A DNA stretch of 64,000 nt from Escherichia coli. Its GTDB lineage: Bacteria; Pseudomonadota; Gammaproteobacteria; Enterobacterales; Enterobacteriaceae. Each line of letters starts with the position of its first letter. The first letter of the stretch is position 1. The stretch lies in NCBI RefSeq assembly GCF_048403405.1, contig NZ_CP183129.1; one strand, given 5' to 3'. Below the pieces are notes generated by a model. That model ran no database searches, was not told the origin of the DNA, and saw only the letters and a program-made list of their open reading frames with translations. The position numbers and the translations under genes were made by a program. Positions 15,137 to 32,709 of this stretch are shown in pieces.

Positions 15137-15148
15137 TTTTCACTTTAA

Positions 15149-15182
15149 TGAACGAAGCAGTCAGGCGACTGCTTCGTTCATC
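15149..15182. terminator. hairpin between convergent lysU and ghoT (possible bidirectional terminator)
   Basis: 12-bp perfect inverted repeat tgaacgaagcag/ctgcttcgttca; no strong T-tract on either side. Confidence 0.4.
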
Positions 15183-16673: not shown

Positions 16674-18305
16674 ATGAGACATTCATTGCCCTACCGCATG
16701 TTACGCAAACGTCCGATGAAATTGAGTACCACAGTGATCTTAATGGTCAGCGCGGTACTGTTCTCGGTGCTATTGGTGGTGCATCTGATTTACTTCTCGC
16801 AAATCAGTGATATGACGCGAGACGGGCTAGCCAACAAGGCACTGGCGGTGGCGCGTACCCTCGCCGACTCGCCGGAAATCCGGCAGGGCTTGCAGAAAAA
16901 ACCGCAGGAGAGCGGCATCCAGGCCATCGCGGAAGCCGTGCGCAAACGCAACGATCTGCTGTTTATTGTCGTTACCGATATGCAAAGTCTTCGCTATTCG
17001 CACCCTGAAGCCCAGCGTATTGGTCAGCCATTTAAAGGTGATGACATCCTTAAGGCGCTGAATGGCGAAGAAAATGTCGCTATCAATCGCGGTTTTCTGG
17101 CGCAGGCTTTACGCGTATTTACCCCCATCTACGATGAAAATCATAAACAAATTGGCGTGGTGGCGATCGGCCTTGAGTTAAGTCGCGTGACCCAACAGAT
17201 CAATGACAGTCGCTGGAGCATTATCTGGTCGGTATTATTTGGCATGCTGGTCGGACTGATTGGCACCTGCATTCTGGTTAACGTACTGAAAAAAATTCTT
17301 TTTGGCCTGGAACCCTACGAAATCTCCACGCTGTTTGAGCAACGCCAGGCCATGTTGCAGTCCATCAAAGAAGGCGTCGTTGCCGTGGACGATCGCGGCG
17401 AGGTCACGCTGATCAACGATGCCGCACAAGAATTGCTGAATTACCGTAAGTCGCAGGACGATGAGAAACTGTCGACGCTCAGCCACGCGTGGTCACAGGT
17501 GGTAGATGTCTCGGAAGTGTTACGCGACGGTACCCCGCGCCGCGACGAAGAGATTACGATTAAAGATCGGCTATTACTGATCAACACCGTTCCGGTGCGC
17601 AGTAATGGCGTTATCATCGGTGCCATTTCAACCTTCAGGGACAAAACTGAAGTACGTAAACTGATGCAGCGACTCGACGGTCTGGTCAACTATGCTGACG
17701 CACTTCGTGAACGATCCCACGAATTTATGAATAAATTGCATGTGATTCTCGGATTATTGCATCTGAAGAGTTATAAGCAGTTGGAAGATTACATTCTCAA
17801 AACAGCCAATAACTATCAGGAAGAGATTGGCTCTCTGCTGGGTAAGATCAAATCTCCGGTTATCGCTGGTTTTTTGATCAGCAAGATTAACCGCGCGACC
17901 GATTTAGGCCATACGCTGATTTTAAACAGTGAAAGCCAGCTGCCAGACAGCGGCAGTGAGGACCAGGTCGCGACGCTGATTACCACATTGGGAAATCTGA
18001 TAGAAAACGCGCTGGAAGCATTAGGGCCGGAACCCGGAGGCGAAATTAGCGTAACATTGCACTACCGTCACGGCTGGCTGCACTGTGAAGTTAACGATGA
18101 TGGACCGGGGATCGCACCCGACAAAATCGATCACATTTTTGACAAAGGTGTCTCGACAAAAGGAAGCGAGCGAGGCGTCGGTTTAGCACTTGTCAAACAA
18201 CAGGTAGAAAATCTCGGCGGCAGCATCGCCGTGGAATCGGAACCCGGGATTTTCACACAATTTTTTGTCCAGATACCCTGGGACGGGGAGAGGTCGAACA
18301 GATGA
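16674..18305 (+). CDS. dcuS: C4-dicarboxylate sensor histidine kinase DcuS, 543 aa
   Basis: Full ORF; TM segments flank a periplasmic sensing domain; H-box and HATPase motifs (DDGPGI) present; matches recalled DcuS. Confidence 0.95.
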   Translation: MRHSLPYRMLRKRPMKLSTTVILMVSAVLFSVLLVVHLIYFSQISDMTRDGLANKALAVARTLADSPEIRQGLQKKPQESGIQAIAEAVRKRNDLLFIVVTDMQSLRYSHPEAQRIGQPFKGDDILKALNGEENVAINRGFLAQALRVFTPIYDENHKQIGVVAIGLELSRVTQQINDSRWSIIWSVLFGMLVGLIGTCILVNVLKKILFGLEPYEISTLFEQRQAMLQSIKEGVVAVDDRGEVTLINDAAQELLNYRKSQDDEKLSTLSHAWSQVVDVSEVLRDGTPRRDEEITIKDRLLLINTVPVRSNGVIIGAISTFRDKTEVRKLMQRLDGLVNYADALRERSHEFMNKLHVILGLLHLKSYKQLEDYILKTANNYQEEIGSLLGKIKSPVIAGFLISKINRATDLGHTLILNSESQLPDSGSEDQVATLITTLGNLIENALEALGPEPGGEISVTLHYRHGWLHCEVNDDGPGIAPDKIDHIFDKGVSTKGSERGVGLALVKQQVENLGGSIAVESEPGIFTQFFVQIPWDGERSNR

Positions 18306-19021
18306 TCAATGTATTAATTATCGATGACGACGCAATGGTCGCGGAGCTGAATCGCCGATACGTAGCACAAATCCCGGGCTTTCAATGCTGTGGAACAGCC
18401 TCGACGCTGGAGAAAGCCAAAGAGATTATCTTCAATAGCGATACGCCTATCGACCTGATATTGCTCGATATCTATATGCAAAAAGAGAACGGGCTCGATT
18501 TACTGCCTGTCCTGCATAACGCACGTTGCAAAAGTGATGTGATTGTCATCTCCTCCGCAGCCGATGCGGCAACCATTAAAGATTCGCTGCATTACGGTGT
18601 CGTGGATTACCTGATCAAACCCTTCCAGGCTTCCCGCTTTGAAGAGGCGCTCACCGGCTGGCGGCAAAAGAAAATGGCGCTGGAAAAACATCAGTATTAT
18701 GACCAGGCCGAGCTTGATCAGCTAATCCACGGCAGCAGCTCCAACGAGCAGGATCCTCGTCGCTTGCCAAAAGGCTTAACGCCGCAGACGTTACGCACGC
18801 TGTGCCAGTGGATTGACGCGCATCAGGACTATGAGTTTTCAACCGACGAGCTGGCTAACGAGGTTAACATTTCGCGTGTTTCCTGCCGTAAATACCTCAT
18901 CTGGCTGGTCAACTGCCACATCTTGTTCACCAGTATCCATTATGGCGTCACGGGGCGTCCGGTTTACCGTTACCGTATTCAGGCAGAACACTACTCACTG
19001 CTGAAACAATATTGCCAATAA
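18302..19021 (+). CDS. dcuR: response regulator DcuR, 239 aa
   Basis: ATGA start/stop overlap with dcuS; CheY-like receiver (IIDDD...LLDIYM) and C-terminal HTH; matches recalled DcuR. Confidence 0.95.
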   Translation: MINVLIIDDDAMVAELNRRYVAQIPGFQCCGTASTLEKAKEIIFNSDTPIDLILLDIYMQKENGLDLLPVLHNARCKSDVIVISSAADAATIKDSLHYGVVDYLIKPFQASRFEEALTGWRQKKMALEKHQYYDQAELDQLIHGSSSNEQDPRRLPKGLTPQTLRTLCQWIDAHQDYEFSTDELANEVNISRVSCRKYLIWLVNCHILFTSIHYGVTGRPVYRYRIQAEHYSLLKQYCQ

Positions 19022-19591
19022 CGGATCGCTGGTTATCTGTAAGTAATAATTATTACTGTAATGCAAAATATTCCTGGCACAAGTTACATTCTTCATCAGT
19101 AAAACTTGTGCCAGATCAAATATAATTATCCCTCCATCATCGTTAAAAATTAATATCTCTTCAGATGAACGGTGTTTTTAATTTCAAAACGCTAACAAAA
19201 GTTAATTAACTATTATGTCACCCGCATTATGTGTATTTTTACCCACAAATGGGTAGATCAGATTAATCTATATACCTAATGATATCTGCCCTGAGAACAA
19301 AAAATAGACCGATAAATATCAATAAGATAATAGCAAACAAAACATTAACATCTGCGCAGTACAAACTATAAACCCATCGCCAGAGAGTTTTTCTCTCTGA
19401 AAAAGCCGCTTATCACAGTGCATAAATTTGCCGCTGCTTTAATCAGCCAATATTCACTGTGAGGTATTTGCTAAAGCCGGTAACGACCAAACGGATATTT
19501 AGTCAGGCTCTGAAAACAGTTCATACAAAACAGAACGTGACTGTGATCTATTCAGCAAAAATTTAAATAGGATTATCGCGAGGGTTCACAC

Positions 19592-20932
19592 ATGTTATTT
19601 ACTATCCAACTTATCATAATACTGATATGTCTGTTTTATGGTGCCAGAAAGGGTGGTATCGCGCTGGGTTTATTAGGCGGTATCGGTCTGGTCATTCTGG
19701 TCTTCGTCTTCCACCTTCAGCCAGGTAAACCACCGGTTGATGTCATGCTGGTTATCATTGCGGTGGTGGCGGCATCGGCGACCTTGCAAGCTTCGGGCGG
19801 TCTTGATGTCATGCTGCAAATTGCCGAGAAGCTGCTGCGCCGCAACCCGAAATATGTCTCAATTGTCGCGCCGTTTGTGACCTGTACGCTGACCATTCTT
19901 TGCGGTACGGGTCATGTGGTTTACACCATTCTGCCGATCATCTACGACGTCGCCATTAAGAACAACATCCGTCCGGAACGCCCGATGGCGGCAAGTTCTA
20001 TCGGTGCACAGATGGGGATTATCGCCAGTCCGGTGTCGGTTGCAGTCGTGTCTCTGGTTGCGATGCTGGGTAATGTCACCTTTGATGGTCGCCATCTTGA
20101 GTTCCTCGACCTGCTGGCAATCACCATTCCATCGACGTTAATCGGTATCCTGGCGATCGGTATCTTCAGCTGGTTCCGCGGTAAAGATCTGGATAAAGAC
20201 GAAGAGTTCCAGAAATTCATCTCCGTACCGGAAAACCGTGAGTATGTTTACGGTGATACCGCGACGCTGCTCGATAAAAAACTGCCGAAAAGCAACTGGC
20301 TTGCAATGTGGATCTTCCTCGGGGCAATCGCTGTAGTCGCACTTCTTGGTGCTGATTCGGACCTGCGTCCATCCTTCGGTGGCAAACCGCTGTCGATGGT
20401 ACTGGTTATTCAGATGTTTATGCTGCTTACCGGGGCGCTGATTATTATCCTGACCAAAACCAATCCCGCGTCTATCTCAAAAAACGAAGTCTTCCGTTCC
20501 GGTATGATCGCCATCGTGGCGGTGTACGGTATCGCATGGATGGCTGAAACCATGTTCGGTGCGCATATGTCTGAAATTCAGGGCGTACTGGGTGAAATGG
20601 TGAAAGAGTATCCGTGGGCCTATGCCATTGTTCTGCTGCTGGTTTCCAAGTTTGTAAACTCTCAGGCTGCGGCGCTGGCGGCGATTGTTCCGGTCGCGCT
20701 GGCGATCGGCGTTGATCCGGCATACATCGTGGCTTCAGCACCGGCTTGCTACGGTTATTACATCCTGCCGACTTATCCGAGCGATCTGGCAGCGATTCAG
20801 TTTGACCGTTCCGGCACCACCCACATCGGTCGCTTCGTCATCAACCACAGCTTTATTCTGCCGGGGTTGATTGGTGTGAGCGTATCGTGCGTCTTCGGCT
20901 GGATCTTCGCCGCGATGTACGGGTTCTTATAA
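19592..20932 (+). CDS. dcuB: anaerobic C4-dicarboxylate antiporter DcuB, 446 aa
   Basis: Hydrophobic ORF paralogous to the dcuA product (shared LLRRNPKY motif); preceded by a 570-bp AT-rich regulatory region; matches recalled DcuB. Confidence 0.95.
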
Positions 20933-21009: not shown

Positions 21010-22656
21010 ATGTCAAACAAACCCTTTATCTACCAGGCACCTTTCCCGATGGGGAAAGACAATACCGAATACTATCTACTCACTTCCGATTACGTTAGCG
21101 TTGCCGACTTCGACGGCGAAACCATTCTGAAAGTGGAACCAGAAGCCCTGACCCTGCTGGCGCAGCAAGCCTTTCACGACGCTTCTTTCATGCTCCGCCC
21201 GGCCCACCAGAAACAGGTCGCGGCTATTCTTCACGATCCAGAAGCCAGCGAAAACGACAAGTACGTGGCGCTGCAATTCTTAAGAAACTCCGAAATCGCC
21301 GCCAAAGGCGTGCTGCCGACCTGCCAGGACACCGGCACTGCGATCATCGTCGGTAAAAAAGGCCAGCGCGTGTGGACCGGTGGCGGTGATGAAGAAGCGC
21401 TGTCGAAAGGCGTCTATAACACCTATATCGAAGATAACCTGCGCTATTCACAGAACGCGCCGCTGGACATGTATAAAGAGGTCAACACCGGCACGAACCT
21501 GCCTGCGCAAATCGACCTGTACGCGGTAGATGGCGATGAGTACAAATTCCTTTGCGTTGCGAAAGGCGGCGGCTCTGCCAACAAAACGTATCTCTACCAG
21601 GAAACCAAAGCCCTGCTGACTCCCGGCAAACTGAAAAACTTCCTCGTCGAGAAAATGCGTACCCTCGGTACTGCAGCCTGCCCGCCGTACCATATCGCGT
21701 TTGTGATTGGCGGTACGTCTGCGGAAACCAACCTGAAAACCGTCAAGTTAGCAAGCGCTCACTATTACGATGAACTGCCGACGGAAGGGAACGAACATGG
21801 TCAGGCGTTCCGCGATGTCCAGCTGGAACAGGAACTGCTGGAAGAGGCCCAGAAACTCGGTCTTGGCGCGCAGTTTGGTGGTAAATACTTCGCGCACGAC
21901 ATTCGCGTTATCCGTCTGCCACGTCACGGTGCATCCTGCCCGGTAGGCATGGGCGTCTCCTGCTCCGCTGACCGTAACATTAAAGCGAAAATCAACCGCG
22001 AAGGTATCTGGATCGAAAAACTGGAACACAACCCAGGCCAGTACATTCCGGAAGAACTGCGCCAGGCCGGTGAAGGCGAAGCGGTGAAAGTTGACCTTAA
22101 CCGCCCGATGAAAGAGATCCTCGCCCAGCTTTCGCAATACCCGGTATCCACCCGCTTGTCGCTCACCGGCACCATTATTGTGGGTCGAGATATTGCACAC
22201 GCCAAGCTGAAAGAGCTGATTGACGCCGGTAAAGAACTGCCGCAGTACATCAAAGATCACCCGATCTACTACGCGGGTCCGGCGAAAACGCCTGCCGGTT
22301 ATCCATCAGGTTCACTTGGCCCAACCACCGCAGGTCGTATGGACTCCTACGTGGATCTGCTGCAATCCCACGGCGGCAGCATGATCATGCTGGCGAAAGG
22401 CAACCGCAGCCAGCAGGTTACCGACGCGTGCCATAAACACGGCGGCTTTTACCTCGGTAGCATCGGCGGTCCAGCGGCGGTACTGGCGCAGCAGAGCATC
22501 AAGCATCTGGAATGCGTCGCTTATCCGGAGCTGGGTATGGAAGCTATCTGGAAAATCGAAGTAGAAGATTTCCCGGCGTTTATCCTGGTCGATGACAAAG
22601 GCAACGACTTCTTCCAGCAAATCGTCAACAAACAGTGCGCGAACTGCACTAAGTAA
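21010..22656 (+). CDS. fumB: class I (Fe-S) fumarate hydratase FumB, 548 aa
   Basis: Full [27 protein letters not shown]...; conserved dcuB-fumB linkage; matches recalled FumB. Confidence 0.95.
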
Positions 22657-26426: not shown

Positions 26427-26708
26427 GCAGATCTCCTGGCTTGCTTGAATAACTTCATCATGGCAGGCGAATCTGCAGAAAACCTCCGGCTTCCAGGTTG
26501 AGCATTCCCATAAACTCAGATCCTGCGTGAAGCAGCAGTAAATCTGAGTTTATGGGAATAAGTTACCTGAAAAGCAGAGTTTTCGGCCTCATGATGCTCG
26601 GACGCTCCCCTCGCCGCTGTGGGAAGAGGGTGAAAACCGTGCTCCCACTCGCAGTCATCCTCCCTCACTCCTGCCATAATTCTGATATTCCAGGAAAGAG
26701 AGCCATCC

Positions 26709-32668: not shown

Positions 32669-32709
32669 AAGCCAACCTTAAGAACTTAAGGTTGGCTTAA
32701 TTTTGCTTT
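32669..32709 (+). terminator. rho-independent terminator downstream of adiC
   Basis: Hairpin aagccaaccttaag-aac-ttaaggttggctt followed by aattttgcttt. Confidence 0.6.

Follow-up and report, generated by a model that had tools for sequence, protein, structure and literature searches.

What does a perfect inverted repeat do at the head of the long intergenic region that separates the response regulator gene dcuR from dcuB in Escherichia coli? DcuB is the main fumarate/succinate antiporter of anaerobic respiration and also serves as a co-sensor for DcuS. The repeat lies between the end of a sensor operon and the control region of its target gene, and the initial annotation suggested that it may act as the dcuSR terminator or as an operator. 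We analyzed this region within a 64-kb stretch of DNA (hereafter, the window), and the features discussed below are listed in Table 1. Positions 18900-19700 are 100% identical to the chromosome of strain CFSAN061763, and the RefSeq annotation of that record gives the plus-strand order dcuS, dcuR, dcuB, fumB, corresponding to the open reading frames at 16674-18305, 18302-19021, 19592-20932 and 21010-22656. In MG1655 (NC_000913.3) the same genes are on the minus strand; the spacer differs from that of MG1655 at 1.7% of positions with no indels, and subtracting a window position from 4368336 gives the K-12 coordinate.

The initial annotation described the 570-bp region upstream of dcuB as unusually long and AT-rich, and this description holds, with a GC fraction of 0.345 in the spacer compared with roughly 0.50-0.57 in the flanking genes. 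The length is conserved, since the spacer measures 556-956 bp wherever dcuR and dcuB adjoin (Escherichia, Citrobacter, Salmonella, Trabulsiella and Intestinirhabdus), and the segment 18900-19700 is present, as a single copy, in 5414 of 5426 complete E. coli genomes. The locus is the already known dcuB-fumB control region of E. coli: it has the same location, FNR site and gene order as the K-12 dcuB region (EcoCyc/RegulonDB; Golby 1998; Abo-Amer 2004; Janausch 2004; Myers 2013) and does not differ from it in any essential respect. Recurrent adaptive IS insertions upstream of dcuB have been described during colonization of the mouse gut by E. coli (PMC5094792), and in E. coli S7 (NZ_CP107128.1; our locus L083:2501-2922) the spacer is broken at about 19321 by lambdoid prophage structural genes (gpFI and tail genes). 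Together, the prophage break and the published IS insertions suggest that the spacer tolerates or attracts insertions.

Table 1. Features of the dcuR-dcuB region, in window coordinates
Feature	Position	Strand	Basis or remark
dcuR CDS (response regulator)	18302-19021	+	239-aa ORF and RefSeq annotation of a 100% identical record
dcuR-dcuB spacer, the dcuB-fumB control region	19022-19591	+	570 bp, 34.5% GC
Block A, GTTAT..GTAAyAATTATTAc..TAATGnAAAA with perfect palindrome AGTAATAATTATTACT	19033-19067		Alignment; conserved across four genera
Inverted repeat, 5′ arm CTGGCACAAGTT	19074-19085	+	Escherichia only; invariant there
Inverted repeat, 3′ arm AACTTGTGCCAG	19103-19114	+	Overlaps the FNR site
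FNR binding site TTGTGCCAGATCAA	19106-19119		-132.5 from the dcuB start; Myers 2013
C-rich, G-poor tract after the hairpin	19129-19146	+	Inferred to be rut-like
Almost invariant AT-rich block TGTTTTTAATTTCAAAACGCTAACAAAAGTTAATTAACTATTATG	19173-19217		Putative DcuR-P site immediately upstream of the promoter
-10-like TATTTT (19234-19239) and dcuB transcription start (~19245)	19234-19245	+	Start placed from the -132.5 spacing of Myers
NarL 7-2-7-like site TACCCACAAATGGGTA	19240-19255		One mismatch to TACYYMTNNAKRRGTA; overlaps the inferred transcription start
CCCATCGC followed by 7-bp stem-loop CAGAGAG-TTTTT-CTCTCTG	19373-19399 (stem-loop 19381-19399)	+	Covariation
CRP-like site TGTGATCTATTCAGCA	19542-19557		Three mismatches to TGTGA-N6-TCACA; good left half kept across genera
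Shine-Dalgarno GAGGG and dcuB ATG (19592)	19580-19594	+	TCGCGAGGGT kept across genera
dcuB ORF	19592-20932	+	446 aa; annotation of a 100% identical E. coli chromosome

The repeat itself is real, and it is slightly larger than first described: the initial annotation gave an 11-bp perfect inverted repeat at 19074-19114 just after dcuR, whereas the arms are 12 nt each, 100% complementary, separated by 17 nt and beginning 52 nt past the dcuR stop codon. Dinucleotide shuffling of the spacer yields on average 0.0024 perfect repeats of at least 12 bp with a loop of 3-40 nt, and a shuffled 64-kb window yields 0.18, compared with four real loci in the window. The RNA of the plus strand folds with a free energy of -18.6 kcal/mol (z = -5.8), and none of 200 shuffles folded as well; the stem consists of 12 perfect pairs, six of them G-C, and the formation of two to three extra pairs would shorten the loop from 17 to 11 nt. 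The other three perfect repeats of this size in the window lie at 15148-15181, directly after the lysS stop codon, where the repeat looks like the lysS terminator, at 26504-26559, with 19-bp arms, and at 32669-32698. We rejected a dispersed repeat or mobile element because the 12-mer of the arms is found nowhere else in the 64-kb window and the region is single-copy in E. coli. A scan of positions 18500-20100 with the Rfam 15 covariance models found no relevant family; the sole match was a chance lncRNA hit inside dcuB (E = 0.3, 21 bits; gathering score, 55).

The 3′ arm coincides with a known protein binding site. Myers 2013 (PMC3688515) reports in Table S6 a predicted and ChIP-bound FNR site, TTGATCTGGCACAA, at 4347240 (U00096.2) with a score of 12.3, and this sequence is the reverse complement of window positions 19106-19119. 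The implied offset of 1977 bp is the amount by which the two versions of the K-12 genome differ in length, the K-12 site is identical to that in the window, and nine of the 12 bases of the 3′ arm therefore belong to a published FNR site that is occupied in vivo. The same study places dcuB-fumB in Category 1, the class directly activated by FNR, gives it a single FNR site, at -132.5 (its Table 1), and detects an FNR peak at dcuB in K-12 by both ChIP-seq and ChIP-chip. The peak center of 4,347,259 given in that Table 1 corresponds to window position ~19100, inside the loop of the repeat, and the center given in Table S5 corresponds to ~19143; overlap of the FNR site with H-NS, IHF and Fis is listed as "None" (Table S6).

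By sequence, the site matches 8 of the 10 defined positions of the TTGAT-N4-ATCAA consensus and is, jointly with 19309-19322, the best FNR-like match in the spacer. Because matches this weak are common, with about 49 sites of up to two mismatches in the 64-kb window, the motif alone would be insufficient evidence. The site is also conserved, showing 100% identity across the eight lineages of Escherichia and 90% across the 13 spacers from Citrobacter, Salmonella and Trabulsiella; TTG-N6-ATCAA is kept in 21 of 21 aligned spacers from four genera, and the block TTGTGCCAGATCAAATAT is kept in all aligned genera. We conclude that the 3′ arm with its 3′ flank is an FNR activator site that is bound in vivo in K-12.

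It is important to note that this site is unusually placed. Like the FNR-activated promoters of class II (-41.5) and class I (about -61.5), dcuB has a TTGAT-N4-ATCAA-type site, FNR-dependent anaerobic induction and greater sigma70 occupancy in the absence of oxygen, but its site lies far upstream and at neither of the two class positions. Among the activated promoters in the Category 1 table of Myers 2013 (PMC3688515), 19 of 23 have their site at -41.5 ± 4, and dcuB is the most distal. We found no conserved -10 element on either strand at a distance that would fit a nearer promoter, and positions 19132-19147 are variable. Given the location at -132.5, FNR probably acts together with DcuR or through DNA architecture rather than through direct class I or class II contacts.

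To follow the history of the repeat, dcuR loci were taken from one genome per species and 21 dcuR-dcuB spacers were aligned, representing Escherichia (eight lineages), Citrobacter, Salmonella diarizonae and Trabulsiella. The spacers from outside Escherichia keep the right arm and the FNR block and have no counterpart of the 5′ arm. Within Escherichia, where the eight lineages diverge by up to 15% in the spacer and 28% of spacer positions vary, none of the 12 positions of the 5′ arm is variable, whereas 5 of the 10 positions in the adjoining 5′ flank and 7 of the 17 loop positions are. The probability of 0/12 variable sites is ~0.001 at the local rate of ~44% (12/27) and 0.02 at the spacer-wide rate of 28%. 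The only change in either arm is C19105T in E. albertii, which turns a G-C pair into G·U on the plus-strand RNA and would give a C·A mismatch on the minus strand. Because the 5′ arm is found only in Escherichia and is invariant there, we consider the hairpin an Escherichia-specific addition to an older FNR site. A perfect complement of an ancient FNR site that is confined to one genus and apparently under constraint would be modestly new, and the accessible parts of the published descriptions contain no discussion of the FNR-site arm as part of a perfect 12-bp Escherichia-specific hairpin.

The same alignment bears on the possibility that the left arm by itself serves no function. Template-switch (quasi-palindrome) events produce perfect complementarity, and the left arm could be such a copy of the FNR-site arm that persists by descent or within an unrelated site. 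Its restriction to a single genus and its perfect match to the other arm are what such an event would yield, and, because the stem is invariant apart from the one G·U change, there is no compensatory substitution to prove pairing. Nevertheless, the lack of any variable site at the neutral expectations given above, and the retention of the repeat from E. albertii to E. coli, argue against mere persistence, and we regard an arm without function as unlikely, if still deserving of some weight. Base pairing by itself does not account for the first 4 nt of the loop, which are also conserved (the whole run is 19074-19089), and conservation of the 5′ arm could instead reflect a protein site.

If the hairpin is functional, one role could be that of a canonical Rho-independent terminator of dcuSR on the plus strand. 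As in intrinsic terminators, a G+C-containing perfect stem is located just downstream of the last gene of the operon, its predicted stability is high, and gene ends elsewhere in the window also carry perfect repeats of this size, such as that at 15148-15181 after lysS. The repeat differs from intrinsic terminators in its downstream tail, AUCAAAUAUAAUUAU, which has three U in the first 9 nt and no U-tract, in its loop of 17 nt where about 3-8 nt would be usual, and in being missed by a terminator scan, which found 0 terminator-like sites across 18900-19700. The structure is also missing from Citrobacter, Salmonella and Trabulsiella despite the same gene order. Because of the missing plus-strand U-tract and the long loop, we do not regard the repeat as a canonical intrinsic terminator and hold that reading to be improbable. 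The initial suggestion of a dcuSR terminator thus fails for the canonical intrinsic type, and a Rho-type 3′-end element is possible in its place.

A Rho-type 3′-end element fits the position of the hairpin, its strict conservation in Escherichia and the C-rich tract that follows it. Hairpins that lack a U-tract reportedly mark the trimmed 3′ ends of Rho-terminated transcripts. In all eight Escherichia lineages, positions 19127-19148 contain 7-11 C compared with 1-3 G in 22 nt, with the sequence varying and the composition kept; across 19080-19159 the C/G ratio is 3.0-3.25, as in untranslated rut-like RNA. The composition of the tract is what would be expected of a Rho-utilization region, and the tract is absent from the other genera. 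The arrangement resembles the 3′ ends described by Dar & Sorek 2018 in having a stable hairpin without a U-tract near the stop codon, followed by C-rich, G-poor untranslated RNA. The hairpin might, purely as a hypothesis, belong to the stem-loop-protected 3′ ends of Rho-terminated transcripts, and our best inference from the sequence is that hairpin and C-rich tract would together form a dcuSR 3′-end module in Escherichia. We found no entry for dcuR or dcuB in the 3′-end data of the Adams 2021 and TERMITe supplements, none for the dcuR-dcuB locus in the Cappable-seq supplements, and nothing relevant in the literature on a dcuR terminator.

The other role proposed initially was that of an operator, and this is correct for the 3′ arm with its flank and not for the repeat as a whole. 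A two-armed operator would have one regulator on both arms, for example FNR as a pair of dimers or some other factor that is dimeric or tetrameric, and both arms are indeed invariant in Escherichia, while the FNR peak center at ~19100 falls between them rather than at the center of the annotated site (19112.5). That 12-nt offset is within the resolution of ChIP-seq, however, and Myers 2013 (PMC3688515) counts one FNR site in the peak. Read on the minus strand, the left arm gives TTGTG-CCAG-GAATA, in which the position of ATCAA differs in nearly every Escherichia lineage (GAATA, GGGTA, TGCTC, TGCTA and others), and we rejected a second FNR site there because the outer half varies among these lineages and does not resemble ATCAA. 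The left arm is missing from other genera that keep the FNR site, and half-sites 29 bp apart from center to center would be an unusual geometry. Because genera other than Escherichia lack the 5′ arm and the flank on the outer side of that arm is variable, we do not consider the whole repeat a protein site, and one regulator on both arms seems to us distinctly improbable.

A promoter scan of 18900-19700 found no plus-strand promoter and a single sigma70-like match on the minus strand, compared with 2.8 expected in shuffles. The least probable reading, that the hairpin ends, as a minus-strand intrinsic terminator, some unannotated transcript running leftward from within the spacer or antisense to dcuB, can draw on a U-rich tail (GAAUAUUUUGC) better than that of the plus strand, with the stem followed by GAAUAUUUUGCAUU, five U in 8 nt from 2 nt past the stem and UUUUGC kept in Escherichia, and on that leftward match at 19146-19119, but the match would start inside the hairpin and falls below chance expectation, no RNA family or known sRNA was found at the locus, the E. 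albertii change would break a pair on this strand, and the A-run encoding the U-tail is conserved in genera without the hairpin and so is kept for another reason.

The wider spacer bears out the initial expectation of multiple regulatory inputs, which had already been published (EcoCyc via PMC5094792; Myers 2013). According to PMC5094792, EcoCyc annotates this region with sites for DcuR, NarL, FNR and CRP, and regulation of dcuB by these four proteins is also documented in PMC9429925. Motif scans of the spacer, as proposed in the initial annotation, found FNR (TTGTGCCAGATCAA), CRP-like (TGTGATCTATTCAGCA) and NarL-like (TACCCACAAATGGGTA) sites. At the dcuB promoter itself, the sigma70 peak that increases anaerobically (~4.34712e6; Myers) corresponds to window positions ~19234-19244, and TGTGTATTTTTA at 19230-19241, which contains TATTTT, is invariant across genera.

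Upstream of this promoter, the AT-rich block at 19173-19217 varies at 1 of 45 sites in Escherichia, is near-identical across genera and ends 27-28 bp before the start at ~19245. Abo-Amer 2004 reportedly located a DcuR footprint 27 bp upstream of a dcuB promoter, then newly identified, that responds to DcuR, and Janausch 2004 reportedly placed the footprint at -359 to -400 from an older promoter-proximal start, which is reported to lie near 19575. The position of the block fits both reports, and we take it to be the putative DcuR-P site. At the start itself, C. amalonaticus carries a perfect version of the NarL 7-2-7 site, TACTCATAAAGGAGTA. NarL reportedly represses dcuB (Golby 1998), and a NarL-like site over the dcuB start would explain nitrate repression by promoter occlusion. 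For a further NarL heptamer, ATGTTAT, which had earlier been annotated at the start codon, the literature contains a proposal for its removal.

Block A, right after the dcuR stop codon, matches none of the consensus sequences for Fur, IHF, NarL, CRP and FNR. A Fur box in it was rejected, with no match at up to six mismatches, and in Salmonella Fur has been described in the literature as having no effect on dcuB-fumB. The spacer contains no match to the IHF consensus. A sigma54 promoter (TGGCAC-N5-TTGCW) was likewise rejected: both arms of the repeat carry TGGCAC, and the -12 element reads ACAT on the plus strand and TTAC on the minus strand. The main text of the sigma54 ChIP-seq paper gives no site at the dcu locus.

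A second RNA structure is found downstream of the promoter (19373-19399), in the dcuB leader, which is roughly 350 nt long; the structure begins and ends about 130 and 155 nt from the leader's start. In an alignment of 25 sequences, 91% of the cells of the stem are paired and compensatory changes occur in four of its seven pairs, across Escherichia, Citrobacter, Salmonella, Trabulsiella and Intestinirhabdus, with the preceding CCCATCGC invariant. The covariation score was reached by 0 of 500 shuffles, controls slid along the alignment pair at only 34-67%, and RNAalifold independently predicts the same stem at 19381-19399. No Rfam family matches the stem-loop, and neither strand carries a U-tract.

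Two further features of the spacer differ among genera. An Escherichia-specific inverted repeat, TCACAGTG...CACTGTGA (19413-19424 and 19451-19462), is 92% complementary and has TGTGA and TCACA motifs like CRP half-sites at a non-CRP spacing. The Citrobacter and Salmonella spacers (e.g., L012:2994-3714) have about 150 extra bp between aligned positions 19288 and 19331 with no counterpart in Escherichia, holding a hairpin (GTAGCA-N10-TGCTAC) and a near-perfect CRP site (CGTGA-N6-TCACA), and this module appears to have been lost in Escherichia.

Taking these results together, we think it probable, though well short of certain, that the region is the known multi-input dcuB-fumB promoter with its FNR site on the 3′ arm of the repeat, and that the Escherichia hairpin marks or stabilizes the dcuSR 3′ end. 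The dcuB promoter would have a poor -35 element and be located directly downstream of the block taken as the DcuR-P site, with the NarL 7-2-7-like site overlapping it, and the resulting control would be anaerobic through FNR, responsive to C4-dicarboxylates through DcuR and responsive to nitrate through NarL. The 5′ arm would have arisen in the Escherichia lineage as the exact complement of the FNR-site arm and been kept by selection; because the two arms are complementary, transcripts leaving dcuR would form a stable 12-bp stem-loop 52 nt past the stop codon. This hairpin would most likely mark or stabilize the 3′ end of the dcuSR mRNA after Rho-type termination, and most likely insulate the dcuB promoter from read-through. 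It is unlikely to work as an intrinsic terminator of the classical kind or as a two-armed operator. Counting against this reading of the hairpin, other genera do without it and its 17-nt loop is long.

A bolder version, which we hold to be doubtful, is that the 12 bp in Escherichia serve two uses, as the DNA half of an FNR site and as the RNA 3′ arm for the dcuSR end, with the leader stem-loop being an undescribed cis-regulatory RNA element; bound FNR might then also be a roadblock. If dual use were true, termination or insulation of the sensor operon would be physically coupled to anaerobic activation of its target gene.

The logic of FNR, DcuR, NarL and CRP at dcuB is textbook, and its confirmation adds little. 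What is left, and modestly new, is an Escherichia hairpin built on an FNR site together with a covarying leader stem-loop, either of which could partly explain the length of the spacer. Our understanding of the system would change only if dcuSR 3′-end formation is truly coupled to dcuB activation.
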